DNA of 58,211 bases from a virus (IMGVR_UViG_3300029763_000003); one strand, 5' to 3'; counted from the stretch's first letter, positions 3,807-55,740 are shown. Made by a program: numbers and translations. Notes: a model not told the origin generated them from the letters alone.

Positions 3807-3816
3807 TGTTATGCGA

Positions 3817-4930: not shown

Positions 4931-4958
4931 TTGACTACTCAGATATAAATGATATAAT
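4931..4958 (+). promoter_or_regulatory. Sigma-70-type promoter (TTGACT-16-TATAAT) for the 5020-5933 cassette.
   Basis: TTGACT at 4931-4936 and TATAAT at 4953-4958. The spacer contains ACTCAGATATA. Confidence 0.65.
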
Positions 4959-5019
4959 ATAGACAAGCTCAGAAATAAATGAGCACAACCACATTGAACC
5001 AAAACAGGAGGCCAAAACC

Positions 5020-5358: not shown

Positions 5359-5450
5359 TTACTCTTGACTTTACCCAGTGGGCTGCCCTCTGGTATGTGG
5401 GCGGCATGATCTCCGGCGCGCTTGTTGTGATTGCGTTTCTCAACAGCTAA
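5355..5450 (+). CDS. Small hydrophobic peptide (31 aa), not in the ORF track.
   Basis: ATGA overlap with the preceding stop. Translation: MITLDFTQWAALWYVGGMISGALVVIAFLNS. Confidence 0.4.
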   Translation: MITLDFTQWAALWYVGGMISGALVVIAFLNS

Positions 5451-5467
5451 TAAGGAGGGGGCAGAAA

Positions 5468-5665
5468 ATGACAATTGATATTTACAGGCCGGAACTTGTT
5501 GCAGAGTATCGCGGCAACGTTAAAGCTGCTATTAACGCCGGTGCTTATAGTATATGGAACGCGGAACGCATTACAGGCGCTTTTAATTTTGGGCACGGTA
5601 CACAGGCCGATTTTGAGCGACACAAAAAAGCAAATTCCGCCTTGCATCTTTTTATGGAGGTATAA
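5468..5665 (+). CDS. Hypothetical protein (65 aa).
   Basis: AAGGAGGGGG RBS before the ATG at 5468. Confidence 0.55.
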   Translation: MTIDIYRPELVAEYRGNVKAAINAGAYSIWNAERITGAFNFGHGTQADFERHKKANSALHLFMEV

Positions 5666-5669
5666 AAAA

Positions 5670-5933
5670 ATGACGTTGTTTGAAGAAAAGGTGAACGAAT
5701 ACCGCGAAAACAAGCGGCTTTTGGAAGAGCTTGAAGCAATGAACGAAAGCATTAAAGCTGATATTATCTGCATGATGCGGGGCGCGCCGGAAATGGCGCA
5801 AGGCACCGCAAAAGCCATTTACAAGGATGTGCAGAGCGTCCGGCTTGATAGCAAGCTTCTGAAGACGCTGCACCCGGATATTTACGCAGAGTGCAGCAAG
5901 CGCACAACATACAAGCGTTTTAGCGTGGTATAA
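5670..5933 (+). CDS. Hypothetical protein (87 aa).
   Basis: GGAGGT RBS before the ATG at 5670. Confidence 0.55.
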   Translation: MTLFEEKVNEYRENKRLLEELEAMNESIKADIICMMRGAPEMAQGTAKAIYKDVQSVRLDSKLLKTLHPDIYAECSKRTTYKRFSVV

Positions 5934-6023
5934 GGGGGTGCAAAAAGTGATATTATCTTGTATCCTGTTTTTCTTTTGGTTTTTCTCTGCGCTCTTCAAG
6001 GCCAGCAAATAAGAAGCATTTCA

Positions 6024-6089
6024 CCCGGTCAGAAATGGCCGGGCTTTTCTTTTGCCTTGCACCTGCTGAGGGTGCAGGGCTTTTATTTT
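6024..6089 (+). terminator. Tandem pair of rho-independent terminators ending the 5020-5933 cassette.
   Basis: CCCGGTC-agaaat-GGCCGGG followed by CTTTTCTTTT, then TGCACC-tgctgag-GGTGCA followed by GGGCTTTTATTTT. Confidence 0.7.
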
Positions 6090-6239
6090 GCCCTGCTGCA
6101 ATACAGCACAATACAAGCGTTTACAGCACGTTTTGTGCTATTAATGCAATTTATACCACACACGCCACAAAACAGCACGCAGGGCTTTACAGGGGCATTT
6201 CCTGAGATTTGCCCCATTCTACCGCCGCAAATACTAGAC

Positions 6240-6650
6240 CGACACAAACGGCTATAATACCGCCTGCGCCACGTTGAGACGTATCACAGCACCGTAACAC
6301 CTCCAGCGCATACCAGATACCAGACGCCGCGCCGGACGCTGTACAGGTCAGCACAGCCGCCCTATTATAATAAGGTATATAAGGGTGAGCCCCTGTTATA
6401 GATCCATGCCAGACGGTGCAGCATATCGCAGACCATGCCAGCCCGGCGGGGTCAGCTCCTACCGTGTGTGGATCGCTGGCAAGTGTTTACACGCTATCAG
6501 CAGTACAGACCCGGCACACCCGCTGAGGGGTCAGCGTCTCCACCTGTACAGGGCCAGCCCGGCACCCTCCACCCGGCGGGGCAGTCCAGCAGCGCGGGCG
6601 GCGCGGAACCCTTGACGGCTGCCGCCGTATCTCTTTTCGGGCTTTCGCCC
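6240..6650. other. GC-rich non-coding island B.
   Basis: Only overlapping RBS-less ORFs on both strands. It shares short strings with island A. Confidence 0.5.
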
Positions 6651-6671
6651 GATAGCTAATAGAGGTCAGCA

Positions 6672-6925
6672 ATAGTCGCAGGGTTCCGGCTGGAATAGTC
6701 GTAACCAATAGTCGTAGTTTCTCCCGAAAAATAGTCGCGGAATAGTCGTAAAGTCGTCAGATGACTAGCTTTTGAAAGTCCTATATATAGTATAGTAATG
6801 AGTAGTCCGCTGATAGTCGTAGAGCAATAGTCGCAGTATTTTCTTGCGAACATACGTCAAATAGTCATGTATTTTTTGTGTGAAATAGTCGTTTGCCTTT
6901 TAGGAAAAGAGAGGTGCGATAGTCG
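6672..6925 (+). repeat. Array of ATAGTCG boxes: 9 exact copies here, all in the same orientation, plus 3 more at 7234, 7484 and 7592. Candidate phage origin or initiator-binding sites.
   Basis: Exact heptamers start at 6672, 6695, 6708, 6731, 6742, 6813, 6827, 6885 and 6919. A variant ATAGTCA is at 6861. Confidence 0.75.
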
Positions 6926-6965
6926 CTAAGTCATCCGACCACTCCAAAAATCACCTCTCGTTCCA

Positions 6966-7167
6966 ATTTCGCATAATTTATTCTTCCGCTAGTTATATCT
7001 ATTTCGTATAACAACCGTACTTATTATAGTATACAGATATAGTTATCCCCGATAATCACTGATTATTTCGTATAATAACTCGTACCATCCGATTCGGTCT
7101 GTCCCTGCTCGATTTAATTCCCAGTAATTCGCTATGGTATTATATTCAATCCATAGTATTTCGCTAT
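6966..7167 (+). repeat. AT-rich segment with five A(T/A)TTCG(C/T)(A)TA boxes, including a 20-bp direct repeat ATTTCGTATAA(C/T)AAC(C/T)CGTAC at 7001 and 7065.
   Basis: Boxes read at 6966, 7001, 7065, 7127 and 7158. Confidence 0.6.
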
Positions 7168-7330
7168 GAATAGTTAATGCAACATTTCTATATATCCAAC
7201 CGACTGCAAAATGAAGTTAATTCTCCATGTGAAATAGTCGTAGACCATCCACCAGCCCGAATCTCACGCCAGTTCTCGCCTACGGTCTGCCCTGTTGGCT
7301 AACGGTGTAGCTTTCATCTTGGCGTGGGGA

Positions 7331-7355
7331 CATGAAATAGCTTGTCTATTTCATG
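7331..7355. repeat. Perfect inverted repeat CATGAAATAG-cttgt-CTATTTCATG.
   Basis: Read directly. Confidence 0.8.
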
Positions 7356-7438
7356 GAAGGGAGATAGAGAGATAGATAGATAATAATAGGGGGTTATAGG
7401 GGGGAAGAAGAAGGAAGGAAGAGAGGAAGATTGGTATG
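7353..7438 (+). other. 86-nt stretch with no C on the plus strand; purine-rich GA/GGA tract.
   Basis: No c occurs between 7352 and 7439. Sequence: ggaagggagatagagagatagatagataataatagggggttataggggggaagaagaaggaaggaagagaggaagattggtatg. Confidence 0.85.
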
Positions 7439-7660
7439 CGAACGCATCATGTGCATCCACTTGCATGCAAACGCATCACGCTTATAGTCGTAGCCATATT
7501 AGCCCAACCGCCACTTGATCGTGACGGTTTCTGCTCAAAATCAGACTTTGCCGTTTTCTCTAGATAAATAACAGACGAAAAAAAACACGGAATAGTCGCA
7601 GAGGGTAGTTTTACTACCTGATACCATTCCATGCTTTTCATTCCATTTGTTAATTGGTGA

Positions 7661-7969
7661 TTATAGCGGAGATTTGAATTCTGCTGTCTGCTTGCATCTT
7701 GCTGCTTGCATCTTGCGCATACGCTCCGCAGCCGCTTCTTTTTGTTCGTCCGTCATAATTCTTGTGGTTGCAAACCGAACCAGTCGCTTGGGCATCTCAT
7801 ACCACTTACCGTCCTTGTCCTGTTTGACCAGCTTGTACGATGCAGGCTCACGTTCGCACAGCTTGTCAAGCTTGCGCATATACACCGGGTCAGCGGTATA
7901 AACCGATGCAGTATCTTCCGCTGCATTGAAGTTGACGATGGTCTCTTGTTCCAGTCGAGTGATGTTCAT
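7661..7969 (-). CDS. Hypothetical protein (102 aa), last gene of the early operon.
   Basis: GGAGGAAAA RBS before the ATG at 7969. Confidence 0.55.
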   Translation of the reverse strand: MNITRLEQETIVNFNAAEDTASVYTADPVYMRKLDKLCEREPASYKLVKQDKDGKWYEMPKRLVRFATTRIMTDEQKEAAAERMRKMQAARCKQTAEFKSPL

Positions 7970-8109
7970 AATCGTTTTCCTCCGTTTGTTGATTGATAAA
8001 AAATATTTATTGGGTTCAGACGGTAACTTTATCGCCCAGACCATGTTATCTGTTTTTCTTGCCTATTCTACCGTGAAGATACGAGCGCAGAAACGATGCT
8101 AGGCTACTA

Positions 8110-8385
8110 TCACTCAATCGCTTCGTATGTTTTCTCGAAAATGTCAGGTTTACACGGGTAGATTTCGCCATTTACGCCACGAATGATATAATCGCCAGTC
8201 CTAGCAATCATAGTCCCTTCGAGCGTTTTAATCTCGCACCACGCAGGGTCATCGTGAAACTTTCCGAAATCATGCGTGATAATCTCATTGCTACTTACTG
8301 CATTCCAGAACCAATCTTCTCCAACAAGGCCTCGTGCATTAAGTTTGAATGCCTCGATAACAACTGGCTTCTTGCGGTATTTCAT
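8110..8385 (-). CDS. Hypothetical protein (91 aa).
   Basis: GAGAGGAGAA RBS before the ATG at 8385. Confidence 0.55.
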   Translation of the reverse strand: MKYRKKPVVIEAFKLNARGLVGEDWFWNAVSSNEIITHDFGKFHDDPAWCEIKTLEGTMIARTGDYIIRGVNGEIYPCKPDIFEKTYEAIE

Positions 8386-26553: not shown

Positions 26554-26598
26554 GGTATCAACAAGTGGGAAGGATGTGAGAACTTGGGAGACTTGTCA

Positions 26599-27660
26599 AT
26601 GAACAATCTCGTAGAAAAGAGCAAGGCTCTTGTGTGGGCAAAGTTCAGGGACTATACCGCTGGAGAACTTCGTCTGCTAGAAGTATACCTGTCAAGAATC
26701 AACCCTCGCGACCCTGAAAGTGCAACTGTTCAGTTCACACTGAAAGAATACTGTGACTTTTTGGGTATCCGTCTGAACAGTAAAGATTTGAAGCAACAGC
26801 TTAGGCACTTCATTGAGAACACAGTAGCCGTCCCTCTTGAAGGGAAGGACGAATACACTCTGTACACCCTGTTTGCTATGGCGCAAATTCGATTTGACCC
26901 GGAGTGCTTTACATACATGGTCTCAATCAGATGCAACCCTTTGTTGCAGCCTGTGTTCTTTGATATTGCAGAAAAAGGGTATGTTCGGTATCGTCTGCGA
27001 TACACGGCAAGCATGAAGTCTCAGTATAGCATATTGCTTTATTCAATTCTTCGTGACTGGATGAACATGGGGTCGAAGGGGCATGAAATCAGCATCAAGA
27101 AGCTGAAGGAGCAACTTGGTGCGACAGCAAGCAGTTATGACCAGTTCAAATTTTTTAGAGCAAAGGTCTTGGATGTTGCCGTTGCTGAAATCAATGAAAT
27201 ATCCGACATTTCTGTGTCGTATAAAAAACGGACTGTTGGGCACAGAACAGTATCGATTATCTTTGACGTAAAGATAAAACGCTCTGAGCCGGTCATAGAT
27301 GCCGAATCCAGCGAGATTGAGACAACCCCATTAAGAGACGTCTCTGACAACGAAAAGCCTGTAAAAAGCCCTAGAAACGGCGCATACGAAGATGTTGACT
27401 GGGCAAGCCTGATGCCGGGCGTTGACGAAAAGCAGTGTGCAAGCATTGCAAGGTCTGTTGCAAGGCGAATAAAATCTGAATACCCGAATATTCGCAAAGA
27501 CAAGAAGAAGGATGCTGTTGTGAACATTGTGCAGGGCGCATACGAGCAAGCCGTAAAGGGCAAACCGGATGTTGAAGTGCCAGAAGCTTACCTTCGAACG
27601 GTTATCAAGGATTCTCAGTTAAGCAAGTTTGCGACATTCGGGTTCGATTATCTTGAATAA
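26599..27660 (+). CDS. Plasmid replication initiator (Rep_3/RepB-like, iteron-binding).
   Basis: The N-terminus NNLVEKSKALVWAKFRDYTAGELRLLEVYLSRINP...FTLKEYCDFLGI and later SQYSILLYSILRDW are typical Rep_3 patterns. Iterons lie upstream. Confidence 0.75.
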   Translation: MNNLVEKSKALVWAKFRDYTAGELRLLEVYLSRINPRDPESATVQFTLKEYCDFLGIRLNSKDLKQQLRHFIENTVAVPLEGKDEYTLYTLFAMAQIRFDPECFTYMVSIRCNPLLQPVFFDIAEKGYVRYRLRYTASMKSQYSILLYSILRDWMNMGSKGHEISIKKLKEQLGATASSYDQFKFFRAKVLDVAVAEINEISDISVSYKKRTVGHRTVSIIFDVKIKRSEPVIDAESSEIETTPLRDVSDNEKPVKSPRNGAYEDVDWASLMPGVDEKQCASIARSVARRIKSEYPNIRKDKKKDAVVNIVQGAYEQAVKGKPDVEVPEAYLRTVIKDSQLSKFATFGFDYLE

Positions 27661-27675
27661 AGAAAGAGTGATAAA

Positions 27676-28443
27676 ATGGCAAAAATCATAGCTGTCGCCA
27701 ACCAGAAGGGCGGCACAGGAAAGACTACCACAAGCACCTGTCTGGCCGGTGCGTTGCAGTTGCTCGGAAAGAAGGTACTGCTGGTGGACTGCGATGCCCA
27801 GTGCAACACAACGGATACCTACGGAGCACAGACAGAGGACGTATGCACCTTGTTTGATGTGATGACCCGGCAAGGTACGGTCGAAGAAGGAATCCAGCAC
27901 TGTGAAGCTGGTGACATTCTTCCGTCCGACAACGCATTGAAGGACATTGACGAGCAGCTTGTCCGGGACATGGGCAAGAACTTCAGATTGCGAGAAGCCC
28001 TTGAAAGCGTATCTGGGCAGTACGATTACATTGTGCTAGACACTCCCCCGCAGCTTGGTCTTGCGCTTGTGAACGCGCTGATCGCCGCCAACAGCATCAT
28101 CGTTCCCATCACAGCAGACCGATACGCACTGGCTGGTTTGAGCCAGCTTTCGCAGACCATCGGCGATGTTCGCAGATACTTCAATCCGACTTTGAAGATT
28201 GAAGGTCTGCTTCTGAACCAGTACAAGAGCCGTGAGAACCTGTCCAAAGAGGTTGTGGAGCAGCTTCCTGTAATTGCACAAAGCATGGGAACAAAGCTAC
28301 TGGACGTGAAAATTAGACCGTCTATGGGCGTTCGTAAGGCACAGGCAGAGCGTCACAGCCTGTTCAGTGGTGACACGGCAAAGAGTACCAGCGCAGAGGA
28401 TTTCAAGGCGTTGGCGAAGATGATTGTAGAGGGGGATGTGTAG
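27676..28443 (+). CDS. parA: ParA/Soj-type partition ATPase.
   Basis: Deviant Walker A VANQKGGTGKTTTS, plus LLVDCDAQ and YDYIVLDTPP. Confidence 0.85.
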   Translation: MAKIIAVANQKGGTGKTTTSTCLAGALQLLGKKVLLVDCDAQCNTTDTYGAQTEDVCTLFDVMTRQGTVEEGIQHCEAGDILPSDNALKDIDEQLVRDMGKNFRLREALESVSGQYDYIVLDTPPQLGLALVNALIAANSIIVPITADRYALAGLSQLSQTIGDVRRYFNPTLKIEGLLLNQYKSRENLSKEVVEQLPVIAQSMGTKLLDVKIRPSMGVRKAQAERHSLFSGDTAKSTSAEDFKALAKMIVEGDV

Positions 28444-28700
28444 TGAATGTAGTTAGATATAAAGAGTTGGAAAAAGCCGAGTTTGAATTGCAAAGCAAAT
28501 TCAGCTCGAAAGATGTTATGTTTTTCCGCCGAGGGGATGGAATAGACAATCCGATTTATTATGTTGTTTCGCAAAGACATTGTGGGGCGTTAAGTCCCGA
28601 AGAAGCCATAAAAGCCGGAAAAGTTTTGATTGAAGCTGGAAATGCGGCGAAATCTTTTCGGTACAACGGGTATTTTATTGATTGGAGTGACACACAGTGA
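28443..28700 (+). CDS. Small protein (85 aa) translationally coupled to parA. Possible partition adaptor.
   Basis: GTG start overlaps the parA stop (GTGTAGTGA). RBS GAGGGGGA. Confidence 0.5.
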   Translation: MNVVRYKELEKAEFELQSKFSSKDVMFFRRGDGIDNPIYYVVSQRHCGALSPEEAIKAGKVLIEAGNAAKSFRYNGYFIDWSDTQ

Positions 28701-29269
28701 AAAAGTCCAGCAAAAAAACATCCGGCTTGTTGGGCGGGTTTGATTTCCAGCCTATTTCTTCGGGGCGGGCATTAAGCCAAAGTGAGCCAAAGGAAGAAGA
28801 AGTAAGCCAAGCAAAGCCGAACGAAGCCGAACAAGAACAGATTGAGCCCAGTGAAGCCACAGGCAGCCATGCACAGCCTAATGAAGCACGGTTAAGCAAT
28901 ATTAAGCCGAAGCAAGCCAAAGACAGCGGAACACAGCCAAACAATGCAGTAGTAAGCGAAAGTAAGCCAAAGAAGCTGAAACAGGCGAAAGAAGTTCAAC
29001 GTCTTATCGAACAAGGCGATGTTCCAGGAGCACTAGCAGAAGCTGGTTTGACAAAGAAAAAAATCCCGATGCCGGAATCGCATCAGGGCGTTGCAAGCGG
29101 TGATGGCAAGCGTTCTAAGCGCATTACCATCCTTATGAGCGAGGAAGAACGCAAGTACATCAACCGTGAAGCAAGACGGCACGGAATGACCATCGGGCAG
29201 TATGTGTACGCTCTGGCTGCTGCTGCGGCAGACGGAAAGATTGAATTGGAGGATTTTTTAGATGAATGA
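28697..29269 (+). CDS. Ribbon-helix-helix DNA-binding protein with a low-complexity E/K/P/Q/S N-terminal half.
   Basis: The C-terminus KRITILMSEEERKYINREARRHGMTIGQYVYALAAAAA fits an RHH pattern. The GTG start overlaps the upstream stop. Confidence 0.6.
   Translation: MKKSSKKTSGLLGGFDFQPISSGRALSQSEPKEEEVSQAKPNEAEQEQIEPSEATGSHAQPNEARLSNIKPKQAKDSGTQPNNAVVSESKPKKLKQAKEVQRLIEQGDVPGALAEAGLTKKKIPMPESHQGVASGDGKRSKRITILMSEEERKYINREARRHGMTIGQYVYALAAAAADGKIELEDFLDE
28771..28970 (+). repeat. Twenty consecutive decamers with RAGCC in fixed phase (12 exact AGCC, 4 AGCA/AGCG). Candidate centromere/operator array inside a coding sequence.
   Basis: AGCC occupies positions 5-8 of the decamers starting at 28771, 28781, 28801, 28811, 28821, 28841, 28851, 28861, 28871, 28901, 28911, 28931 and 28961. 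AGCA or AGCG occupies them at 28881, 28891, 28921 and 28951. Confidence 0.8.
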
Positions 29270-29681
29270 CGTGTGGACTGATATTGGGCAGAAATATGAA
29301 GCAATGGCAAATATGGGATGCAAGCCTTATGGTTTCAAGCGAGTTCCATTAAATTTTGTGTTTGATGAAGATAAGTCGGTGAAGTGGAACAAAGAACAAG
29401 CGCAAAAGAACAACGATGATTACGACAATGAAGTTAAGCGACTGAATCAAGAAAAAATGAAGCGCAGGGATGAAATCTACGCAGAGATTTATAAGACGAT
29501 TCAAGAAGAAGTCGGTTTTGGGATTTCAGAAAAGAAAGCGGCAAAAATTTGGCGGTACGCTTACGATAGAGGGCATTCAGCAGGATGGTATGAAATAATC
29601 ATCAATTTGGAAGAAATTGAAGAACTCGTAAAGTTCGTATTAGGTAAAAAAACTGAGTTGGAGGATTTCTTAGATGAATGA
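29262..29681 (+). CDS. Hypothetical protein (139 aa).
   Basis: ATGAATGA overlap with the upstream stop. The C-terminus is ELEDFLDE. Confidence 0.6.
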   Translation: MNDVWTDIGQKYEAMANMGCKPYGFKRVPLNFVFDEDKSVKWNKEQAQKNNDDYDNEVKRLNQEKMKRRDEIYAEIYKTIQEEVGFGISEKKAAKIWRYAYDRGHSAGWYEIIINLEEIEELVKFVLGKKTELEDFLDE

Positions 29682-30555
29682 TAGTGAACGACGCCTTATT
29701 CGATTTGTTTGCGATGGTGATATGCGAAACGCGCAAAAAGCTGTTAAAATCATTTTGAATTCCATATCATCCAAAAAAGATGAGCAGTTCAAAGAAAATA
29801 TGCTTCGCAAGTTGGAAAGCAAAAGAGAATTTATTGAATTGCCATATAACTTACAGCATCTTTTGATCGCAGAGGATACAGAAGAATTTCCAGAAGCAAG
29901 ATTCCTTCTTAGGAACGAAGAAAAAAGTATAACGCAGAAAATCATTGCTATTTATCGAGCATCTGAAAAATTGAACGAAATGGGCATTCCTTATTTGCCA
30001 GCATTGATGCTTTATGGACAAAGCGGATGCGGAAAAACCATGCTGGCTAGGTATATCGCTCATAAAGCAAAACTTCCGTTTTTGAGGATTCAATTTTCAA
30101 GTCTAGTTGATTCGCACTTAGGGCAAACTCAATCTAACCTTGCGAGAATTTTTGATTATGTGAGAACCGCTCCTTGCGTTCTTTGTTTTGATGAAATAGA
30201 TGCGGTCGGAATGGCTCGTGGGCAAAACGATGACGTTGGGGAAATGAACCGTGTGGTTATTGCGATTATGCAAGAAATGGATAGATTGCCGAATAATGTC
30301 ATCATTATCGGAACGACAAACCGATTTGATAGGATTGACCCTGCGCTTACAAGAAGATTTCCGTTGCAATACGAATTAAAGCCGTTGTGCCGTGCGGATG
30401 CAGAAATACTTTCCAAAAGGTTCTTTGAATATGCAGGAGCACAATATGAAAACATAGCTTATGAAGACCACGTCCCCGCATCTACTGTTATCAAAGAATG
30501 TACAGAACGAATTGTAAATCAAGTTCTGAATCAAGAGGATTTCTTGGAGGATTGA
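29674..30555 (+). CDS. AAA+ ATPase (classical AAA family, PF00004-like).
   Basis: Walker A GQSGCGKTMLARYIA and Walker B VLCFDEIDAV. Also IIGTTNRFDRIDPALTRRF (sensor / Arg finger). Confidence 0.8.
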   Translation: MNDSERRLIRFVCDGDMRNAQKAVKIILNSISSKKDEQFKENMLRKLESKREFIELPYNLQHLLIAEDTEEFPEARFLLRNEEKSITQKIIAIYRASEKLNEMGIPYLPALMLYGQSGCGKTMLARYIAHKAKLPFLRIQFSSLVDSHLGQTQSNLARIFDYVRTAPCVLCFDEIDAVGMARGQNDDVGEMNRVVIAIMQEMDRLPNNVIIIGTTNRFDRIDPALTRRFPLQYELKPLCRADAEILSKRFFEYAGAQYENIAYEDHVPASTVIKECTERIVNQVLNQEDFLED

Positions 30556-30558
30556 CGA

Positions 30559-30837
30559 ATGGGCGTAACCATCAAATGCAAAAAGACTGGGCGTGAAATG
30601 GATGTGGGCTATTTCGGGTTTTTCAAGTTGAGAACGAAGGTTGCAGAACTTGTTGGTTCGGAAGTCGGAGAGCACTATAAAAAACTTGATGACATTCTCG
30701 ACATACCATCTCCCGAAAAAGAACACGTTCTAGAATCATACAATGACGAAACAGAGCGATTGGTTGAAAGCAAAATGCTTCCGATTAAAATTGCAGATTT
30801 CCTTTATCAATCGGACTGTGACGGAAAAATCCGATAA
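30559..30837 (+). CDS. Hypothetical protein (92 aa) ending at an in-frame TAA that is followed by 50 open codons.
   Basis: GGAGGA RBS. See the feature at 30838-30990. Confidence 0.55.
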   Translation: MGVTIKCKKTGREMDVGYFGFFKLRTKVAELVGSEVGEHYKKLDDILDIPSPEKEHVLESYNDETERLVESKMLPIKIADFLYQSDCDGKIR

Positions 30838-30990
30838 GGTGCCTGCAAGGAAATCTTAAAAGTTATAGGTGATTATGACGATAGCATTATTTACGGATAT
30901 GCTGGTAGAGAAAACCCCGCAAAGTTCAAAGACTTCAAAGAAATCCTTCAAGATTGTGTAGGCAATAAGTGCTTTATGATTTGGAGATAA
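30838..30990 (+). other. In-frame 50-codon extension downstream of the TAA at 30835-30837. It has no start codon of its own.
   Basis: Translation: GACKEILKVIGDYDDSIIYGYAGRENPAKFKDFKEILQDCVGNKCFMIWR, then a stop. The operon terminator follows this second stop, not the first. Confidence 0.5.
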
Positions 30991-30995
30991 CAATA

Positions 30996-31037
30996 AACCC
31001 CTGTGTAGTCACAATGACCGCACAGGGGTTCTGTTTT
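30996..31037. terminator. Bidirectional rho-independent terminator (10-bp stem AACCCCTGTG/CACAGGGGTT).
   Basis: It lies between convergent operons. The T-run CTGTTTT follows. Confidence 0.75.
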
Positions 31038-31674
31038 ACTTATCAGCAATGCAATCCCAGTAGAGATACGCCTTGCCATCTGCAGCATCTGCGTCTTCAA
31101 GGAACGCCTTTGCCATGTCAGCGTAGAAGCCAGGAGTGTCAACGGACTGGCGCTTTGCGACCTGACAATAATCCGAGTACATCATGTTCATAACAGCCCA
31201 GAAATCGTTCGGGTCACAGGTGATATTGCGCTGTTTCGCAACGTCCTGTGTCTGTTCCAGCGTCCAGTGACAGCCCTTCGTGCCATCAGCGTTCACCATG
31301 CTGTCGCACCATTCCTCTGCTTCATCATGGGTGAGGTGCTGGCGCGGCATCTTGATGGAGCGGCCATCTGCACCGCCACGCTCATACTGCCCAGACCGCT
31401 TGTTCCAGTCACCGTTCTGCGAGAAGCCAATTTGCGGCATTCTGCGCCCATTCTCTACGTCAGGGTAGCGGGGGATAGGGTAGGGGTCGATGTAGCGGTT
31501 CTCTTCCTGCGGATAGTAGGGATAACGGTCGTTGCCGCCTTCCAGTTTACGCAGACGGCGTTCCATCTCACGCTCCCTGCGGTCACGCTCTTCCTCAAGG
31601 CGGTCACGCTCCGGCTCACGGTCTTTGTCGTGGTCGCGGAGCATCATCATGCGGCGAAAATTAGTCTTGCCCAT
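31036..31674 (-). CDS. Hypothetical protein (212 aa): R/E/D-rich N-terminal half and a Cys-containing C-terminal domain.
   Basis: RBS GAGGAGG. DREPERDRLEEERDRREREMERRLRKLE, then HLTHDEAEEWCDSMVNADGTKGCHW...NMMYSDYC. Confidence 0.6.
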   Translation of the reverse strand: MGKTNFRRMMMLRDHDKDREPERDRLEEERDRREREMERRLRKLEGGNDRYPYYPQEENRYIDPYPIPRYPDVENGRRMPQIGFSQNGDWNKRSGQYERGGADGRSIKMPRQHLTHDEAEEWCDSMVNADGTKGCHWTLEQTQDVAKQRNITCDPNDFWAVMNMMYSDYCQVAKRQSVDTPGFYADMAKAFLEDADAADGKAYLYWDCIADK

Positions 31675-31687
31675 AATCTATACCTCC

Positions 31688-32059
31688 TCAAGAAATGGAC
31701 GCGGGCGCACCAGCGTGGGAGCGGCAGAAGCAGCCAAGATACTTGAACGTGCCGGTGCCGGTCGCAGACGTTGCAACGCGGGTAGCGTAGCGGGTGCGAG
31801 TGTGGATGCTCTCGGCGGTTGCCTGAGCGCAGTTGCAGTCGGTCAGAGGGTATGCGGTCGTCCCTGCACCGATGGTGATAACCACAGGGGCGTTGATGGT
31901 GGTCGTGTCCGGTATGCTCTGGGCAACCACAATGCAATACTTCTCTCCGTTCTGGTATGCACCAGCAGGGATGTTGATAGTCAGCGTATCGTTGGCGAAA
32001 GTGACCGCCTGACTGATGACCAAGTGCGGGCAGAGTTTGCAGCTTGTTTTGCAAGCCAT
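31688..32059 (-). CDS. Cys-rich beta-rich small protein (123 aa).
   Basis: RBS AGGAGGAAAA. N-terminal MACKTSCKLCPH, internal DCNC and GCFC. Confidence 0.6.
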   Translation of the reverse strand: MACKTSCKLCPHLVISQAVTFANDTLTINIPAGAYQNGEKYCIVVAQSIPDTTTINAPVVITIGAGTTAYPLTDCNCAQATAESIHTRTRYATRVATSATGTGTFKYLGCFCRSHAGAPASIS

Positions 32060-32071
32060 AATGTTTTCCTC

Positions 32072-32109
32072 CTAAAAAATCAGGGGCAGAGGTGTATCAC
32101 CCCTGCCCC
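32072..32109 (-). terminator. Hairpin GGGGCAG/CTGCCCC followed by a T-run on the minus strand, lying between cassette genes. Possible attenuator.
   Basis: Stem at 32083-32089 / 32103-32109. A-run at 32074-32080 on the plus strand. Confidence 0.45.
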
Positions 32110-32144
32110 GATGGTTCACCCGGTGTTATCGGGGAGTGTGTAGG

Positions 32145-33017
32145 TTAGCAGCAGCCGCAGCAGTTCACGCCCACGTTAGGGTTTGCCACCTGATAAGCGG
32201 GAATCGGACGAGGATTGACCCGGTTCAGAATGGTATCGGTCTGCTGGGACATCACGGTGGTCAGAAGCGCATTCTGGCGATCCTGAGAAGCCGCGAACTT
32301 CAGGCTCTGGTTCTCGGCGGTCAGAGTTGCAATCTTATCCTGTGTGAAGTAGTCCATCATGCTGCGGAAGTTGGCGTTGCAGTTGTCCACAATGGCACGG
32401 GCGTTGTCTGCGATAGCCTGACGGGTAGCGCAGTCCTGCTGTGCGATGGTGTACTTCAGGTCGCCGATCAGCTGCTTGTTCTCGCAGCAGCAAGATGCCA
32501 GCTGCGTAGCAAGAGCGGTCTGACCCGCCTGCCGTGCGTTGCCCTCCTGCATGATGGCAAGGCTGATAGCGTTGTCACCGTTGGACACGCTGCGTTCCAG
32601 ACCGTTCACGAGCTGTGCGTTCTGGTAGCCAAGCTGACAGATGGCACTGTTCACACCAGCAAAGCCGTTCGCGATGTTGGCGTTGAGGCCGTTGATCTGC
32701 GCCAGCTGGTCATACCCCAGAGAGCAGATACCGCTCTGGATACCCGCCAGAGAGCGGGAGGTATCCTGCTGGTAGAAGCCCTCAGACAGAGCCGCGCGGG
32801 TGTCTGCACCGCCCTGACCGGTTGCGCCAGTGCCGACCAGATAGGGGATGTAGGCGTTCATGCCGTTGTCACCACCGTTCCGGCCATAGCCGTTTGTGCC
32901 CCAGCCGAAAATGATGGCGAGGATAATAACCGCCCACAGACCTTCGTTGCCGAAGAATCCGCCGTTGTTATTGCCACCGTCCTGCCCAGCCAGATAGCCA
33001 GTTGCAAAATCGTCCAT
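32145..33017 (-). CDS. Membrane-anchored G/N-rich, Cys-containing coiled-coil-like protein (290 aa) ending in CCGCC.
   Basis: ATG at 33017 follows AAAGGAG. GGNNNGGFFGNEGLWAVIILAIIFGWGTNGYGRNGG contains the TM segment. ASCCCENK occurs internally. The C-terminus is NPNVGVNCCGCC. Confidence 0.6.
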   Translation of the reverse strand: MDDFATGYLAGQDGGNNNGGFFGNEGLWAVIILAIIFGWGTNGYGRNGGDNGMNAYIPYLVGTGATGQGGADTRAALSEGFYQQDTSRSLAGIQSGICSLGYDQLAQINGLNANIANGFAGVNSAICQLGYQNAQLVNGLERSVSNGDNAISLAIMQEGNARQAGQTALATQLASCCCENKQLIGDLKYTIAQQDCATRQAIADNARAIVDNCNANFRSMMDYFTQDKIATLTAENQSLKFAASQDRQNALLTTVMSQQTDTILNRVNPRPIPAYQVANPNVGVNCCGCC

Positions 33018-33156
33018 AACAAAACTCCTTTCAGTTTTGCGTATGCTATCCCACCGCCGTATGCGATGGGCGAAGCCAAACAAAAGCGGTTTTTGTCAAG
33101 TCCGCAAAACTGAGAAGCGTTTCGCTTAGAGGAATGCTTATTTTAGGATCGTTAAG

Positions 33157-33318
33157 TCAGCTTGGAGGGTTGTCTTTTTTATCTTTTGGGTCATCCCACT
33201 TTTTGCTGGCAGCACCGAAAATGAAGCCAAGCATTAAAGGAACCCATATTTTGTCATCGCCACACAGATTGTTGATGTCAAAATCTTTTTCGGAATGGCT
33301 GTTTTCAAAATCATCCAT
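33157..33318 (-). CDS. Small membrane protein (53 aa), not in the ORF track.
   Basis: AGGAG RBS. Translation: MDDFENSHSEKDFDINNLCGDDKIWVPLMLGFIFGAASKKWDDPKDKKDNPPS. Confidence 0.45.
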   Translation of the reverse strand: MDDFENSHSEKDFDINNLCGDDKIWVPLMLGFIFGAASKKWDDPKDKKDNPPS

Positions 33319-33330
33319 TGCAAAGTCTCC

Positions 33331-33582
33331 TCACTTCGGAAGCGTCAAATTCAGGACGCTTGCCAGCTGGTTCAGGTCGATGCCACGCTCTTTGGCGAGG
33401 TTCTGCGCCATCGTTCGGAGTTGCGCTTCGTTTTTGCCCTGAATCAGGTTCAAGCCCTGCATGATGGGGGCATTCTGCCCGCTCAACTGCTGGATAAGCC
33501 CCATCGGGTTTTGCCCGGCACGAGCCAGATTTGCAAGCTGCATGATGGGGCTGTGAGTAATCATATCAAATGGAGAGGACAT
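33331..33582 (-). CDS. Hypothetical Q/N/L-rich protein (83 aa).
   Basis: RBS GAAAGGAGAA. Confidence 0.55.
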   Translation of the reverse strand: MSSPFDMITHSPIMQLANLARAGQNPMGLIQQLSGQNAPIMQGLNLIQGKNEAQLRTMAQNLAKERGIDLNQLASVLNLTLPK

Positions 33583-33585
33583 CGC

Positions 33586-34104
33586 TTATTCTCCTTTCTT
33601 CGCTGTGGCAGTGGGCTTAGAAAAGCTCTTCTGCCACTTTTCCAGTTCGTCCAGCCGATGCACAAGGGCGTTGTACTGCTCAATAGGCACGTACTGCTGT
33701 GTCGGTGCAGCGGTCTGCTGTGCCTGTTGTGCTTGCATCTGCCGCCATGCTTCCGGGCTGTAGAACTCCTGTACATAGGATTCACAGGTGTCCGGGTTGA
33801 GCCGCTTGCAATAAATCACACCGCTGCGCAAGTCCGGGCAGTAGGTCGGTCTGCCGTACAGGTCAGACGGTATTGCCAAAAACTCCTCCCTGCTGGAAAC
33901 GGGTCTACCAAGCAACCAACCGCCATCTTGTGCCGACTGCTGAACAGGCTGTTGCCCATTCATCGGCTGCGGACGCTGCGGTTGTGCCTGTTGCATCTGC
34001 GTGTTGGGTAGGGGAGTGGCAAGCCCGACCGTACCCATGCCGCCGTAAGGATTGACAGGCTGCTGTGGAACGTAGGGCGCGCCGGGTGTCGGATAATAGC
34101 TCAT
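33586..34104 (-). CDS. Hypothetical protein with a P/Q-rich N-terminus and a Cys-containing core (172 aa).
   Basis: ATG at 34104 follows AAGGAGGGA. MSYYPTPGAPYVPQQPVNPYGG... Confidence 0.6.
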   Translation of the reverse strand: MSYYPTPGAPYVPQQPVNPYGGMGTVGLATPLPNTQMQQAQPQRPQPMNGQQPVQQSAQDGGWLLGRPVSSREEFLAIPSDLYGRPTYCPDLRSGVIYCKRLNPDTCESYVQEFYSPEAWRQMQAQQAQQTAAPTQQYVPIEQYNALVHRLDELEKWQKSFSKPTATAKKGE

Positions 34105-34150: not shown

Positions 34151-34182
34151 CGAAGGACAACGAAGCGACAACGAAGGACAAA
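34151..34182. repeat. Three tandem 10-11-nt repeats CGAAGGACAA / CGAAGCGACAA / CGAAGGACAAA, just upstream of the cassette.
   Basis: Read directly. Confidence 0.6.
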
Positions 34183-34264
34183 AAAGAAAAGCGCCCACAC
34201 AGCACAGGGCTGTATGAGCGCTCAAGTATTTGCACGCAACGCGTATAAAATTTTCAAAAAAGTC

Positions 34265-34293
34265 TTGACAATTATACGCAATGCGTGTATAAT
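34265..34293 (+). promoter_or_regulatory. Perfect-consensus promoter TTGACA-17-TATAAT. The inverted repeat ACGCA-A-TGCGT lies in its spacer.
   Basis: TTGACA at 34265-34270 and TATAAT at 34288-34293. Confidence 0.75.
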
Positions 34294-34345
34294 AAAGACA
34301 ATGAAAGGCACCACACAAACACATGGAGACATGGAGGTAACAATT

Positions 34346-34630
34346 ATGAAAAAGCTCACTGCTGACGAGTTTGCAACCAAGGTTATGGCCACCGGCACCG
34401 AAATCGAGTACGACAACGGCGTTTGGATGATCTACGCGCACCTGACCTATGATGGCGACGTCAAAACCTCTCATCTGGACGCTCGCGACCTGATGGTCAC
34501 TACCAGCATCGAACTCTCCGATGAAGAGGGTGAGGCACTCATGAACGGCAATCTGGACGACGTTGAGAGACAGGCCGTAGTGGAAGACCTTTACCCGAAG
34601 TATCTTGAAGCTCTGGAAGATATGGAGTAA
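34346..34630 (+). CDS. Hypothetical acidic protein (94 aa).
   Basis: GGAGGT RBS 7 nt before the ATG at 34346. Confidence 0.55.
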   Translation: MKKLTADEFATKVMATGTEIEYDNGVWMIYAHLTYDGDVKTSHLDARDLMVTTSIELSDEEGEALMNGNLDDVERQAVVEDLYPKYLEALEDME

Positions 34631-34690
34631 AGAAAATCTCCCCAGCCGATGTGCGTACATCGACCGGGGAGATTTAAGAAGGAGAAGACT

Positions 34691-35014
34691 ATGTATACTA
34701 CTGCTGAACTCTTTATTATGGCTGCTGACCCGGAAGCGTCCAGGGCAGCGTTCCTCAACAGCATCACTCTTAGCGTCCCGGATGACGCTTCCGGCTGCAT
34801 CGACTTGGATGCCGAGAAGGCAAGGCTGTCCACCATCTGGGATTTAGCTCATCTTCCAATGCGTGAGCTGGTAGCCCGCACTGGTCTGTCGCAGACCGCT
34901 TTTGCAAAGCAGGCGGGCGTCCCGCGGCGCACCGTGCAGGACTGGTGCGGCGAAAAGCGTGCGTGCCCCACATACGTCAGATTCCTGTTGGCAGAGCATT
35001 ATAATCTGCTATAA
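34691..35014 (+). CDS. HTH protein with an MqsA/HigA-like C-terminal HTH (107 aa).
   Basis: MRELVARTGLSQTAFAKQAGVPRRTVQDWCGEKRACPTYVRFLLAE. RBS AAGGAGAA. Confidence 0.55.
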   Translation: MYTTAELFIMAADPEASRAAFLNSITLSVPDDASGCIDLDAEKARLSTIWDLAHLPMRELVARTGLSQTAFAKQAGVPRRTVQDWCGEKRACPTYVRFLLAEHYNLL

Positions 35015-35068
35015 CCTTAACCGGATGAAATCCGTGGGCTATATATAACCGAAAGGAAGGCTTACATT

Positions 35069-35368
35069 ATGGATAAAATTAAAAAACCCTATCTCATCAC
35101 GGAAGATGGGATGAGCCACTATGACGAGTTCTGCACCACCTTGAGCGGAGAGCTCACCTCCATCCCGTCTCCGTTTATGCCGAACAGGAAGCCGATGGTC
35201 AACAGCGATTTCCCCGAAGGCAGGGTATACTCTGTGACCCTGCGGGAAAAGGGTGAACTCGGTGCAGAAGCCACCGTCCGTTTTGTCACCTACGAAGAAG
35301 CCAGTCAGTTCATGCACAGCGTGTCCTGCCGTTGCAAGACGATAAAGGAAGCACTGGCACTGGCATAA
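35069..35368 (+). CDS. Hypothetical protein (99 aa).
   Basis: RBS GAAAGGAAGG. Confidence 0.55.
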   Translation: MDKIKKPYLITEDGMSHYDEFCTTLSGELTSIPSPFMPNRKPMVNSDFPEGRVYSVTLREKGELGAEATVRFVTYEEASQFMHSVSCRCKTIKEALALA

Positions 35369-35369: not shown

Positions 35370-35408
35370 GAAACCCCCGATGCTCCAAGCGGAACATCGG
35401 GGGTTTAT
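35370..35408. terminator. Bidirectional rho-independent terminator (9-bp stem CCCCCGATG/CATCGGGGG).
   Basis: AAA lies before the stem and TTTAT after it. It sits between convergent transcription units. Confidence 0.75.
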
Positions 35409-35551
35409 GCTGCCGAAACGGCAAAGTCTAAAATCAAGAGCGGAACTGCCCACAGGCAATGCCGCTCTCTACAAAGGCCGTAGAGCCTTTCAAATATCCA
35501 CCCTAATGCGCTTCTTCGAGAGGCCGGGTGGATTTCGTTGGTTTAATTTTA

Positions 35552-35960
35552 TCACACATCCAGTATTTTATCAATGATTTTTAACCTATTACCAATCGAT
35601 GTACGGCAATAAGGCACACGCGCTGCAATATCAACTTGGCATAGCTGGTCAACGTACCGCAACCGGGCGATTTTCCGGTCATACCTCCCAAGCGGCGCAC
35701 GTTTTATCACAGCTTTTATCTGTTCTGCATTAAGCCCTTGCAACGCTGGCGGAAAGACTACGCGAGCCGCCGCCACAGGCAGCACCGAGCCAGAAAGGCT
35801 GCGGCAGCTGTCCGGCGTTGCGCACTCGAGCGGTCACAGCACGGTAATGCCCCATTTTGCCAACGGCGGCAAAATGGTCACACACTGCGGGCCACAAAAT
35901 CGGGTACGCACGCTGATCATAATAATAGCGAGGCGTTTGCTCGTATGTAGTGCTTGCCAT
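35552..35960 (-). pseudogene. Sigma-70 region-4-like small transcription factor, split into two overlapping frames (35730-35960 and 35552-35785).
   Basis: The upstream part starts at ATG 35960 with an AAGGAG RBS. The downstream part (KIARLRYVDQLCQVDIAARVPYCRTSIGNRLKIIDKI, HTH) has only an RBS-less GTG. The overlap includes a GGCGGCGGC run. Confidence 0.4.
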
Positions 35961-36518: not shown

Positions 36519-38300
36519 TTAGGTCGTAGTCATTGATGCAATGGCGTCCTCAAGATTTTTGACGACGAGATTTACGTCCCGCTGGTAGTCCAACTTGATG
36601 CCAGCACCGTCACCCGCTTGCACTACCGTGTCAGGGCCGTAAGTGACGAAGGCTTTGTAAGCGGCAATTTCGGCAGGGGTGAGCGGGGTTTCGATGGGAG
36701 TGGCGAGAATTTTGTAAAGCACAACATTCTCGTTGAACCACATCTTGAACTCACCCGGTGTAGTGCAAATACCTAAAGACTTGGATATGTTAAAAATACC
36801 TTCGCCAGTCGATATAACAAAACCGTTTTCAATGCCCTTGTTGTAGAAGTCCATAAACGGGTAAGAGATAAAACGATTACACGGGCCGCCACTTTCGATG
36901 GTTTGATTAAAAGATCCTTGATATGTAAGAATTTGATAGGAGTAGCTTTTACTTGCGTCCCACCAATTCGGGTCACGAGATACAATGCAATGCTCAATGA
37001 AAGCCCTTCCAACTCTCTGCACCCTCACACCCCTTTCCAAGTCCACCTCGTCGCACACCCACTGCTGGCCGCTTTGGTCAGTGTAGTTGCCGCCAGAGGT
37101 GACAGGGATGCCGGGGAGACCAGTGGGTGTGGGCAGAGTGAGAGTTTGCGTTTTGCCTTTTCCATCGCTGAATGTCACCGCCACGCTGCCGCTGTCGCCT
37201 GCGCTTACGATAGGCACAGGTGCATCCGGCGTGGGTGTGCCGTCCTGCGTGCTCCGACCGTACACGGTCAGGCCGCACAGGGGTGCAGCGAAAGCGTCGT
37301 CAACGCTGATGGGGTTACCTGTTTCGCTGCCTGTGAGGATGTTCTGCCGCGCTTTGACTGCGCTGATAGCGTCACCCGTGGCTTTTGCGTCAGCGGCTTC
37401 GCCCTCGTGGGTGAGGGTGGTGTCCACGGTGGCGTCTTTTCCGGGGTCACCTTGCTTGCCGTCCATCACATCGACGGAGCTTGTCCCTGTCGCATCCGTG
37501 ATGACGATACGATGCCCACCAGCGATATCCTGCACGGTGACTGTGGGTGATGTGCCGGGCTCGCCTTTGAAGTCACCGCTTGCAATTTCGTCCTTCAGCT
37601 CCTGCAGGCTGCCAGCGGCTTCCTGAGCGCTCTGGCTGGCACTGCCTGCACTGGTGGCCGCTTCACTGGCGGCGGTCTGAGCGGCTTCTGTAGAGGCTTC
37701 CACCTGCTGGAGAGCCTCGTCCCGGGCTGTGTCCACAACCTTCGTGGCGGCGGCCTGCTTGTCACCGATGGCTTTCAGTGCGTCTTCTTTGGCGGTGATG
37801 GTGTCAGAAAGAGCCTGTCCGGCCTTTTTGGCAGATGCCCCGGCCTGCTGTGCTGCCGTCTGTGCATCGGTCTTGGCCTGCTCTGCGGCGGTGGCATCGG
37901 CGTGGACGGCATCCACCAGCTGCTGCCATGCAGGGGTGCCCGGCTCCGGCTCGGTGCCGTCCTCTGTGCCGGAGTTGGCGCTGACACGATACTGCAGGTC
38001 TGCGCTGGTAACGGTCTTTGTGCCGTCGCTGCCCTCAAAGGTGAGGCACCCGCTTCCGGGCTGTGCGGTCACGCTGGCGGGCACGTCCACAGAGCCGTCT
38101 ACCACCAGCGAGGATGCCGGGTCTTTGCCGTCCTGGACATGCCAGAAGCAGCGGATAGCCAGCCCTTCCCACTCGCCGGAAACGGTGACGCGCAGGCGAT
38201 ACACGCCCCGGTTCTTGGTGTAGCCAAAGCGCACCAGCTGCTCATAGCCCGGCACTTTGACGACGCCATTGGATGCGAGAGATACGCTTTGCTCGATCAT
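36519..38300 (-). CDS. Tail-fibre-like protein (593 aa) located downstream of the lysis genes.
   Basis: A/Q/E-rich coiled-coil centre. The motif DTTLTHEGEAADAKATGDAI is shared with the fibre at 40262-41146 (DKTLSVEGAPADAKAVGDAL). Confidence 0.6.
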   Translation of the reverse strand: MIEQSVSLASNGVVKVPGYEQLVRFGYTKNRGVYRLRVTVSGEWEGLAIRCFWHVQDGKDPASSLVVDGSVDVPASVTAQPGSGCLTFEGSDGTKTVTSADLQYRVSANSGTEDGTEPEPGTPAWQQLVDAVHADATAAEQAKTDAQTAAQQAGASAKKAGQALSDTITAKEDALKAIGDKQAAATKVVDTARDEALQQVEASTEAAQTAASEAATSAGSASQSAQEAAGSLQELKDEIASGDFKGEPGTSPTVTVQDIAGGHRIVITDATGTSSVDVMDGKQGDPGKDATVDTTLTHEGEAADAKATGDAISAVKARQNILTGSETGNPISVDDAFAAPLCGLTVYGRSTQDGTPTPDAPVPIVSAGDSGSVAVTFSDGKGKTQTLTLPTPTGLPGIPVTSGGNYTDQSGQQWVCDEVDLERGVRVQRVGRAFIEHCIVSRDPNWWDASKSYSYQILTYQGSFNQTIESGGPCNRFISYPFMDFYNKGIENGFVISTGEGIFNISKSLGICTTPGEFKMWFNENVVLYKILATPIETPLTPAEIAAYKAFVTYGPDTVVQAGDGAGIKLDYQRDVNLVVKNLEDAIASMTTT

Positions 38301-55663: not shown

Positions 55664-55740
55664 TGGGTGCGGGGGCTGGATTTGAACCAGCGTCCTCCAG
55701 CTTATGAGGCTGGCGAGCTACCGTGCTGCTCTACTCCGCC
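55664..55740 (-). tRNA. tRNA-Met (anticodon CAU), initiator-like. CCA is encoded.
   Basis: Hand-folded: GGCGGAG-TA-GAGC-AGCACGGTA-GCTC-G-CCAGC-CTCATAA-GCTGG-AGGAC-GCTGG-TTCAAAT-CCAGC-CCCCGCA-C-CCA. There are two acceptor-stem mismatches (1:72 and 6:67). Confidence 0.75.

Follow-up and report, generated by a model that had tools for sequence, protein, structure and literature searches.

A conserved, mobile module of tailed phages of the anaerobic gut, with a regulator gene of its own and a structured RNA inside it

Between the plasmid module and the late operon of the viral genome IMGVR_UViG_3300029763_000003 lies a cassette of six genes, P1 to P6, and the question raised by this locus is whether these genes make up a unit and, if so, what kind of unit it is. 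A first-pass annotation, made from the DNA itself, had described positions 31036-34104 as an orphan cassette of cysteine-rich, low-complexity and membrane-anchored proteins. We analysed the cassette within the whole available stretch of DNA (58,211 nucleotides, referred to as the window). The cassette proved to be a conserved, mobile module bounded by terminators; a regulator gene belongs to it, and a structured RNA lies within it. It is no orphan: homologues of P5 fall into more than 2000 clusters at 90% identity and those of P4 into about 990 representatives at 50% identity, and the gene order is the same in about 115 related loci from many phages.

Gene order was examined over 87 loci using tblastn and synteny of hidden Markov model (HMM) matches. 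The order was fixed and restricted to a single strand: a small helix-turn-helix (HTH) protein, P1, P2, P4, P5, and P6. P4 was detected by HMM in 81 of these loci, P1 in 69, P2 in 52, P6 in 46, and the HTH family (iterated HMM) also in 46, many of the loci being truncated by contig ends. P4 adjoined P5 in 81 of the 87. The first-pass annotation had suggested that co-occurrence of the genes in other prophages be checked; P3 excepted, they proved to be linked in this fixed order, not single and unlinked. Since homologues of all but P3 retain the same order in many loci, these are real coding sequences rather than chance open reading frames (ORFs). P3 was found by tblastn in none of 92 loci, and is a lineage-specific gene outside the conserved module.

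A scan with the P5 alignment, limited to one genome per species, returned 80 loci, nearly all from Oscillospirales or Clostridia; the isolates among them include Anaerotruncus colihominis DSM 17241 (prophage at about 1.672-1.685 Mb of NZ_CP102255.1), Flintibacter muris (DSM 110149), and Agathobaculum desmolans (ATCC 43058). Parts of the module were recognized in named viruses as well. Butyrivibrio virus Ceridwen and Dulem virus 35 carry the HTH gene, P1, and P4, while bajarodcaudo virus 5 and the Clostridium perfringens phage CPD1 carry the HTH gene, P1, P2, P4, and P5. P4 homologues are present in six C. perfringens phages in all, in at least 15 Crassvirales genomes, in the Bacteroides uniformis phage C3_41T2LP, and in two Methanomassiliicoccales viruses. 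Carriers that have been cultured include Ceridwen, C3_41T2LP, and the C. perfringens phages XP41-N3 and CPD1. In the crAss-like phage cr52_1, the gene directly 5′ of the P4 homologue encodes a DUF7841 protein that is a homologue of P6 (HMM, 6e-31), with an R/D/E/Y-rich tail at its C terminus. The module family spans hosts with monoderm, diderm, and archaeal envelopes.

The position of the module varies from one genome to another; most often it follows the lysis genes, at the end of a prophage. In Oscillospirales prophages, mainly endolysins and holins lie 5′ of it, and integrases, serine recombinases, or host housekeeping genes lie 3′; judged from these downstream genes, the module is the last unit at the prophage end. 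In Dulem virus 35 the whole unit, together with the HTH gene, is placed between the portal/minor-capsid genes and the capsid gene, and in MT835477.1 it is placed between head-tail connector genes. CPD1 and C3_41T2LP carry the module amid early/recombination genes, beside an HNH endonuclease, and in Crassvirales its neighbours are lysis and structural genes. Wherever late-operon or Crassvirales loci were examined, the orientation of the module was that of the adjoining late genes. Carriage is sporadic, over genomes of the siphovirus, myovirus, and podovirus types.

It may be noted that free-standing HNH homing-endonuclease genes were seen beside P4 or close to it in three unrelated phages (CPD1, 4600-5223; C3_41T2LP, 4934-5554; cr52_1, 7664-8242), and such endonucleases may help the module to spread. 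In cr52_1, the region 2522-7526 has in-frame stops under translation table 11, indicating a reassigned stop codon, and a reverse transcriptase beside a tail protein, in an arrangement like that of a diversity-generating retroelement, is found just 5′ of the module copy.

Directly 3′ of P4 we found a structured RNA. A hairpin with a T-run at 32072-32109, noticed earlier before P5 and taken as a hint of differential expression, is part of this conserved structure, which is expected to influence expression. The motif consists of two hairpins and reads 5′-UC (stem of 4-5 bp, loop of 3-9 nt) UGA, 5-9 nt, UC (GC-rich stem-loop) UGAUUUU. In each hairpin, U-A and C-G pairs flanking a bulged U form the closure; the UC and UGA are invariant. 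In most loci the motif starts 4-33 nt past the P4 stop codon, and the minimum free energy fold of the window agrees with the two hairpins.

A covariance model, R1, built from 14 sequences gave 54 matches at E<0.005 in 1 Mb, all of them just 3′ of P4. In the model-fitted alignment 93% of cells were paired, compared with 77% in shuffles and 39-54% in slid controls, and the pairs of helix 1 swap between CG and GC in 16-19 of 51 sequences. When IMG/VR was searched with the bare sequence pattern, 26 of the 28 independent matches were located directly after a P4 homologue in a full cassette; the remaining two came from one high-G+C phage, after its capsid gene. No Rfam family came near its gathering score, the best overlapping one being CRISPR-DR35 (E 6). 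The motif is a putative RNA control element that had not been described before, and a candidate for a new cis-regulatory family.

The second hairpin with its U-run resembles an intrinsic terminator, and termination at this site is predicted; the first hairpin may serve as a recognition or alternative-pairing element. A GC-rich hairpin followed by a U-run was found between P4 and P5 in 49 of 75 loci by a simple rule. Like known intrinsic terminators and attenuators, the motif places such a hairpin and U-run between co-oriented genes, but it differs from them by the extra covarying hairpin, by the UC...UGA closure with its bulged U, and by its specificity for the 3′ end of P4. A recoding or selenocysteine role for the UGA after hairpin 1 was considered and rejected. 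The invariant UGA occurs in all three frames relative to P4 (28, 13, and 11 loci), and hence it is not a recoding signal. In loci L019, L026, L041, L046, L068, L077, and L089, an extra ORF of 65-80 amino acids (aa) stands between the motif and P5, and the motif stays with P4.

The usual first gene of the module encodes the HTH protein and falls outside the boundaries 31036-34104 drawn earlier. By phmmer, the HTH ORF of the window was matched to small proteins just 5′ of P1 in other loci. Members of the family give Sigma70_r4 or weak GerE matches in Pfam, and the protein of the window matched phrog_36 (transcriptional regulator) at 9e-4. This ORF begins with GTG, without a visible ribosome-binding site, and it overlaps the end of a 76-aa ORF (35730-35960) that has a good one. 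Such an arrangement could mean that the regulator gene is frameshifted or decaying, or else that the frameshifting is programmed.

In the window, the HTH gene is split from P1 by a three-gene insert on the plus strand. The insert has a perfect promoter (TTGACA-17-TATAAT, 34265-34293), an imperfect inverted repeat (CGCATTGCGTATAA / TTATACGCGTTGCG) lies on either side of this promoter, and the operon ends at a bidirectional terminator. It may be a regulatory switch, or an insert of the toxin-antitoxin type. Three tandem direct repeats of 10-11 nt, TTGTC(C/G)(C)TTCG, lie on the minus strand between P1 and the terminator 5′ of it (34151-34181) and are a candidate binding site for the module regulator. 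In many other loci, a terminator 5′ of P1 is followed by an extended -10-like element, TGnTAnAAT.

Coordinates are collected in the table. The six ORFs described earlier were all found on the minus strand with the sequence features quoted for them, and each is preceded by a GGAGG-type Shine-Dalgarno sequence at 6-10 nt. The bounding terminators were likewise borne out as stable hairpins, as was the view of the cassette as a linked unit with flanking terminators and its own upstream region. The hairpin directly 5′ of P1 is predicted to shield the cassette from upstream transcription.

Features of the cassette and its surroundings (aa, amino acids; z, z score of the folding energy)
Feature	Position	Strand	Remarks
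Plasmid module	within 26584-30837	+	Rep3, ParA, NikA-like protein, AAA ATPase
Terminator hairpin closing the cassette	30985-31030		between convergent genes; -26.4 kcal/mol, z -6.2
P6	31036-31674	-	212 aa
P5	31688-32059	-	123 aa; starts MACKTSCKLCPH
Two-hairpin RNA motif	32075-32135	-	directly 3′ of P4; covariance model 37.7 bits, E 3e-6; sole match in the window
Hairpin between P4 and P5	32083-32109	-	12-bp stem and T-run
P4	32145-33017	-	290 aa; SCCCENK, terminal NCCGCC
P3	33157-33318	-	53 aa
P2	33331-33582	-	83 aa
P1	33586-34104	-	172 aa
Terminator-like hairpin	34189-34223	-	directly 5′ of P1, with T-run; -25.6 kcal/mol, z -6.2
Three-gene insert	34265-35368	+	splits the HTH gene from P1; about 93 aa, 107-aa HTH_3-like protein, 99 aa
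Terminator hairpin	35375-35415		stable on both strands, -36 and -32 kcal/mol
HTH protein	35552-35785	-	small, sigma-70-region-4/LuxR(GerE)-type; usual first gene of the module
Late operon		-	terminase, portal, capsid, tape measure, Gp10_C baseplate protein, GH25 endolysin, holin, 593-aa protein

P4 is the core protein of the module and belongs to phrog_16490 (2e-40). Its conserved, G/N-rich N terminus contains a hydrophobic segment of 13-16 residues, and the long N/Q/A-rich region that follows is predicted to be helical. Alignments revealed an invariant CCC triplet (C176-178), the motifs LAASQ and PxPAY, and a cysteine-rich C terminus. In annotations made elsewhere, some homologues are called 'outer capsid protein/viral fiber' or 'spike'. 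Distant relatives were considered as carriers of extra domains, and this was rejected, the top 150 representatives measuring 58-340 aa. In the window, the spacer between P3 and P4 (33018-33125, minus strand) folds stably (-44.2 kcal/mol, z -5.3); the fold pairs with the Shine-Dalgarno region of P4, which suggests that P4 is controlled at the level of translation.

Within the module, conservation is highest in P5. When the same 32 loci were compared, the median pairwise identity was 64% for P5, followed by P4 (43%), P6 (36%), P2 (32%), and P1 (31%). The AlphaFold2 model of P5 is an eight-stranded beta-sandwich with a predicted local distance difference test (pLDDT) score of 75, and five cysteines are invariant in the alignment: C3, C7, and C10, which form a Cx3Cx2C motif, along with C42 and C77. 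P5 matched no Pfam family at E<=1, DUF3992, DUF4183, and BclA_C included, and no NCBIfam family. In a Foldseek comparison of the model with the PDB, the best match was a phage baseplate chain at E 0.14, and no Ena structure was among the 50 matches listed. Against BFVD, P5 resembled the C-terminal knobs of phage fibre, collagen-repeat, and receptor-binding proteins (probability 1.0, template modelling score about 0.5, E 1e-3 to 3e-5); one crAss-like virus protein in BFVD fuses the P5-like fold to DUF7841. It may also be mentioned that the 90% cluster containing P5 holds proteins of the length of P6 (212 aa) and is represented by a P6 sequence, which is probably an artefact of a fused or mis-called ORF.

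The P5 slot is interchangeable. In other loci, including those of sibling Rep3-ParA phage-plasmids, it is taken by a BclA_C-like beta-sandwich that lacks the N-terminal cysteine motif of P5. The slot-5 protein of Dulem virus 35 matched BclA_C at 4e-7, below the gathering score, and the protein of sibling locus L093 is related to it. The BclA_C-type fold is common at phage fibre tips too.

P1 has a disordered low-complexity N terminus rich in Y, P, Q, and G, a conserved domain of about 50 aa (V.S.EEA...F.G....D...G.IY.K..N..G...F), and, at the C terminus, a helix whose tail is basic. It matched phrog_21718 (2e-9) and nothing in Pfam or the PDB; a Pfam scan of 56 P1 homologues gave noise only. 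P2 is small, rich in Q, N, P, and M, and predicted to be helical, with no Pfam or PHROG family match, and P3 has a single hydrophobic segment. P6 consists of a disordered N-terminal half rich in R, D, E, and Y and a five-helix DUF7841 domain (residues 110-202; Pfam PF25223, 7e-26) that was modelled by AlphaFold2 with a pLDDT of 85-90. Foldseek found no significant match for this fold in the PDB, only weak, non-significant ones of the HIV matrix type. The cysteines of P6, which had been counted among the shared features of the cassette, are not conserved.

When the six proteins, the HTH protein, and their neighbours were searched against Pfam, PHROGs, NCBIfam, and PADLOC, the cassette matches amounted to DUF7841 and two PHROGs of unknown function, and the earlier statement that none of the proteins resembles a standard virion, lysis, or lysogeny family held good in these databases. 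PADLOC-DB 2.0 gave no match for P1, P3, P4, P5, P6, or the HTH protein, and a marginal one for P2 (PDC-S02, E 0.025). No enzymatic or NTPase domain was detected in any component with Pfam and NCBIfam. Alignment profiles of P1, P4, P5, and P6 found nothing among PDB sequences, and nothing relevant was found in the literature on DUF7841, the PHROG identifiers, the carrier phages, or phage-plasmids. None of the six proteins has a signal peptide, no lipobox occurs in the cassette translations, and a hydrophobic segment is present only in P4 and P3. Of the extracytoplasmic or disulfide-linked assembly proposed in the first-pass annotation, the linkage is backed by the conserved cysteine clusters of P4 and P5, which could form cross-links or metal bridges, but the extracytoplasmic location is not.

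The window looks like a complete siphovirus-like phage-plasmid of about 58 kb, and is probably close to the whole genome. Its composition is mosaic. The G+C content of the cassette is 57-58%, compared with 40% for the adjoining plasmid module. The gene for the 593-aa protein after the holin (36519-38300, minus strand) reaches 63% (37001-38000), against 40-50% for most of the rest; it gave only weak collagen-flanked-repeat and weak Mitofilin matches, both under the Pfam cut-offs, and may be a fibre-like late gene positioned after the lysis genes. In the late operon, a tRNA-Met (CAT) gene separates the terminase region from the portal region (55664-55740, minus strand). The Rep3-ParA region had no match in PLSDB. 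The exact P5 sequence is present on 776 contigs, and proteins of the window were found on hundreds of gut-metagenome contigs, typically of 55-60 kb, so that the element must be very common in gut metagenomes.

Capsid relatives of the window are restricted to phages of Bacillota, and this, together with the strong Shine-Dalgarno sequences throughout, indicates a Bacillota host. Segatella, suggested as the host by one NCBI label, was rejected on account of the same capsid relatives and the GGAGG Shine-Dalgarno sequences. Sibling phage-plasmids with the same Rep3-ParA backbone (L093-L095) carry another allele of the module at the same site, in which P4 is shorter, slot 5 holds the BclA_C-like protein, and the DUF7841 protein has 169 aa, its domain being about 90% identical to that of P6. 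It is a protein of this allele (WP_440486375.1) that is labelled Segatella hominis in NCBI, at odds with the Bacillota-type signals; the label may reflect a contaminant or a binning error.

What, then, does the module do? The reading that we favour, with a probability of roughly 0.4, is that it is a mobile accessory module of the 'moron' type, carried by tailed phages of the anaerobic gut, that benefits the phage by acting at the cell membrane, either in lysogens or late in infection. P4 would be tethered in the host cytoplasmic membrane through its short N-terminal hydrophobic segment and would form a long helical stalk. The knob-like P5 would be joined through its Cx3Cx2C motif to the cysteine-rich end or the CCC ring of P4 by thiol or metal bridges, P1 (Tyr/Gln/Pro-rich) and P6 (Arg/Asp/Glu/Tyr-rich, with DUF7841) acting as adaptors. 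As the partners lack export signals, the complex would be expected on the cytoplasmic face of the membrane, or would be freed only at lysis. The RNA element would end most transcripts after P4, so that P5 and P6 are made at a lower or conditional level. The role could be the control of lysis or egress, or the exclusion of competing phages. By this account the cassette is not a spore structure and is probably not a core part of the virion.

Phage morons and lysogenic-conversion cassettes are similar in being self-contained, terminator-flanked, sporadic, and mobile, and in following the lysis genes at the integrase/host junction; the present module has terminators on both sides, and the whole unit occurs at differing sites of phage backbones. 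It differs from them in having five to six co-inherited genes without signal peptides or enzymatic domains, a dedicated HTH gene, and an internal RNA attenuator, and in being found also in virulent Crassvirales and archaeal viruses. P4 is also reminiscent of i-spanins (Rz, LysB-like) in its N-terminal anchor, long helical region, conserved cysteines, and frequent holin/endolysin neighbours, and in cr52_1 the DUF7841 gene alone separates it from a LysB/FtsL-like gene, two genes 5′ of it. The likeness is one of general layout, with no match to a Pfam or PHROG spanin profile, and unlike spanins, P4 has no lipoprotein partner, occurs here in phages of monoderm Bacillota, is three times longer, and travels with P1, P2, P5, and P6.

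Several observations speak against the membrane-acting accessory module. At 13-16 residues, the hydrophobic stretch of P4 is short, and it could be buried as an anchor instead of crossing the membrane as a helix. No sigma-70-type consensus promoter was found 5′ of P1 in the window, and about a third of the loci have no clear U-run or no motif. No component has a homologue of known function that would support a specific role. Moreover, the P5 fold, the BclA_C-like alternatives, and the 'viral fiber' and 'spike' labels fit a virion fibre equally well. A bolder version of the favoured reading, which we put forward tentatively and consider doubtful as a whole, is a split fibre or scaffold built on the membrane, with a P4 stalk, an interchangeable beta-sandwich cap, low-complexity P1/P6 adaptors that possibly co-condense, cysteine-metal or thiol bridges, and an RNA attenuator of a new class, responsive to a protein or to translation; it might serve, for instance, in egress or exclusion generally. 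The presence of the module in phages and viruses of Bacillota, Bacteroidota, and methanogens would be accounted for by action on the cytoplasmic membrane, the one feature that those hosts share.

The alternative that the module encodes an accessory fibre or decoration of the virion is, in our judgement, rather unlikely. Here a trimeric coiled-coil stalk of P4 would be plugged by its hydrophobic N terminus into the capsid or tail and would bear P5 or a BclA_C-like protein as a distal knob for adhesion in the gut, while P1, P2, and P6 would be assembly factors. The fibre-type knobs matched by P5 in BFVD, the BclA_C-like proteins in its slot, and the labels given to P4 homologues agree with this, as do the location within the head/structural blocks of Dulem virus 35, MT835477.1, and Crassvirales and the absence of signal peptides; a host range that takes in Bacillota, Bacteroidota, and archaea also suits a virion-intrinsic role. 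Two-part fibres in which a coiled-coil stalk carries a trimeric knob, such as reovirus sigma-1, phage fibre tips, and the C-terminal C1q-like domain of BclA, resemble the pairing of an anchored helical P4 with knob folds in slot 5, but in the module the stalk and the knob are separate polypeptides, P4 is seemingly membrane-anchored, P5 is conserved, and there is no significant PDB match. P5 likewise shares the distal knob fold of tail fibre and receptor-binding proteins, but its location is variable and it is the most conserved protein of the module, unlike hypervariable receptor binders. The dedicated HTH gene, the flanking terminators, and the internal attenuator would be unusual for structural genes, the conserved, hydrophobic, G-rich N terminus of P4 resembles a membrane anchor, CPD1 and C3_41T2LP have the module among early/recombination genes, and carriage is sporadic over phages of three morphological types. 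It is because of the dedicated regulator, the membrane anchor, the variable position, early regions included, and the sporadic carriage that we prefer a membrane accessory to a virion part. Less probable still is anti-phage defence or superinfection exclusion by prophages, with P4 as a membrane effector, P5 as a sensor of some part of the incoming phage, and the HTH protein as regulator. Conversion and defence cargo is typically placed where this module is, beside the integrase at the end of the prophage; the unit is autonomous and insulated by terminators, one of its proteins is a membrane protein, it is sporadic and mobile in its distribution, and anti-CRISPR-like genes lie nearby in one locus (L004). 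However, PADLOC returned nothing beyond the marginal P2 match, enzymatic and NTPase domains are absent from all components, the module is conserved within structural regions of virulent Crassvirales, and in the late-operon and Crassvirales loci examined it is co-oriented with late genes.

That P5, and possibly P4, could be an iron-sulfur or zinc sensor of redox state or oxygen, with the HTH protein as its output, strikes us as improbable. An invariant Cx3Cx2C motif and two further invariant cysteines in the cytoplasmic beta-sandwich of P5, the invariant CCC of P4, and the origin of every carrier from anoxic gut habitats are in keeping with the idea; on the other hand, P5 shows no likeness to known Fe-S or Zn families, the N-terminal motif is missing from the BclA_C-like alternatives, and it is from the motif that the whole idea is drawn. 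The likeness to spore-appendage or exosporium subunits that was proposed earlier can be spelled out as a remodelling of the spore surface, in sporulating hosts, by prophage-made subunits of the coat, exosporium, or appendages that are cross-linked through cysteines and governed by a GerE-like regulator. This reading is largely refuted by the distribution of the module, and we give it hardly any credence. The Ena proteins (DUF3992) share with P5 the layout of a cysteine-rich N-terminal extension followed by an eight-stranded beta-sandwich with cysteines in its body; many hosts are Clostridia, some of the small HTH proteins match GerE weakly, coat proteins also lack signal peptides, and the BclA_C-like gene at the P5 position of some loci is a partial echo of the same hunch. 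Yet P5, which is phage-borne, matches neither the sequence nor the fold of Ena, nor DUF4183 or BclA_C, and the collagen-like GXX repeats of BclA-type exosporium nap proteins are absent from P1 to P6. The module is found amid early genes in virulent C. perfringens phages, and P4 and P6 have homologues in viruses of non-sporulating hosts (Crassvirales, a phage of Bacteroides uniformis, and viruses of Methanomassiliicoccales), so that a function specific to spores is ruled out for the family.

What falls away with this is a tempting but mistaken connection with spores. The module is common and crosses phage families and host domains. Recognition of a unit with a regulator and a cis-acting RNA turns six 'hypothetical proteins' into a testable system, and phrog_16490, DUF7841, the P5 family, and the RNA motif provide a marker set for annotators. 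If the module controls lysis, egress, or exclusion between phages, it would be relevant to the dynamics of abundant phages of the gut, crAss-like phages among them.

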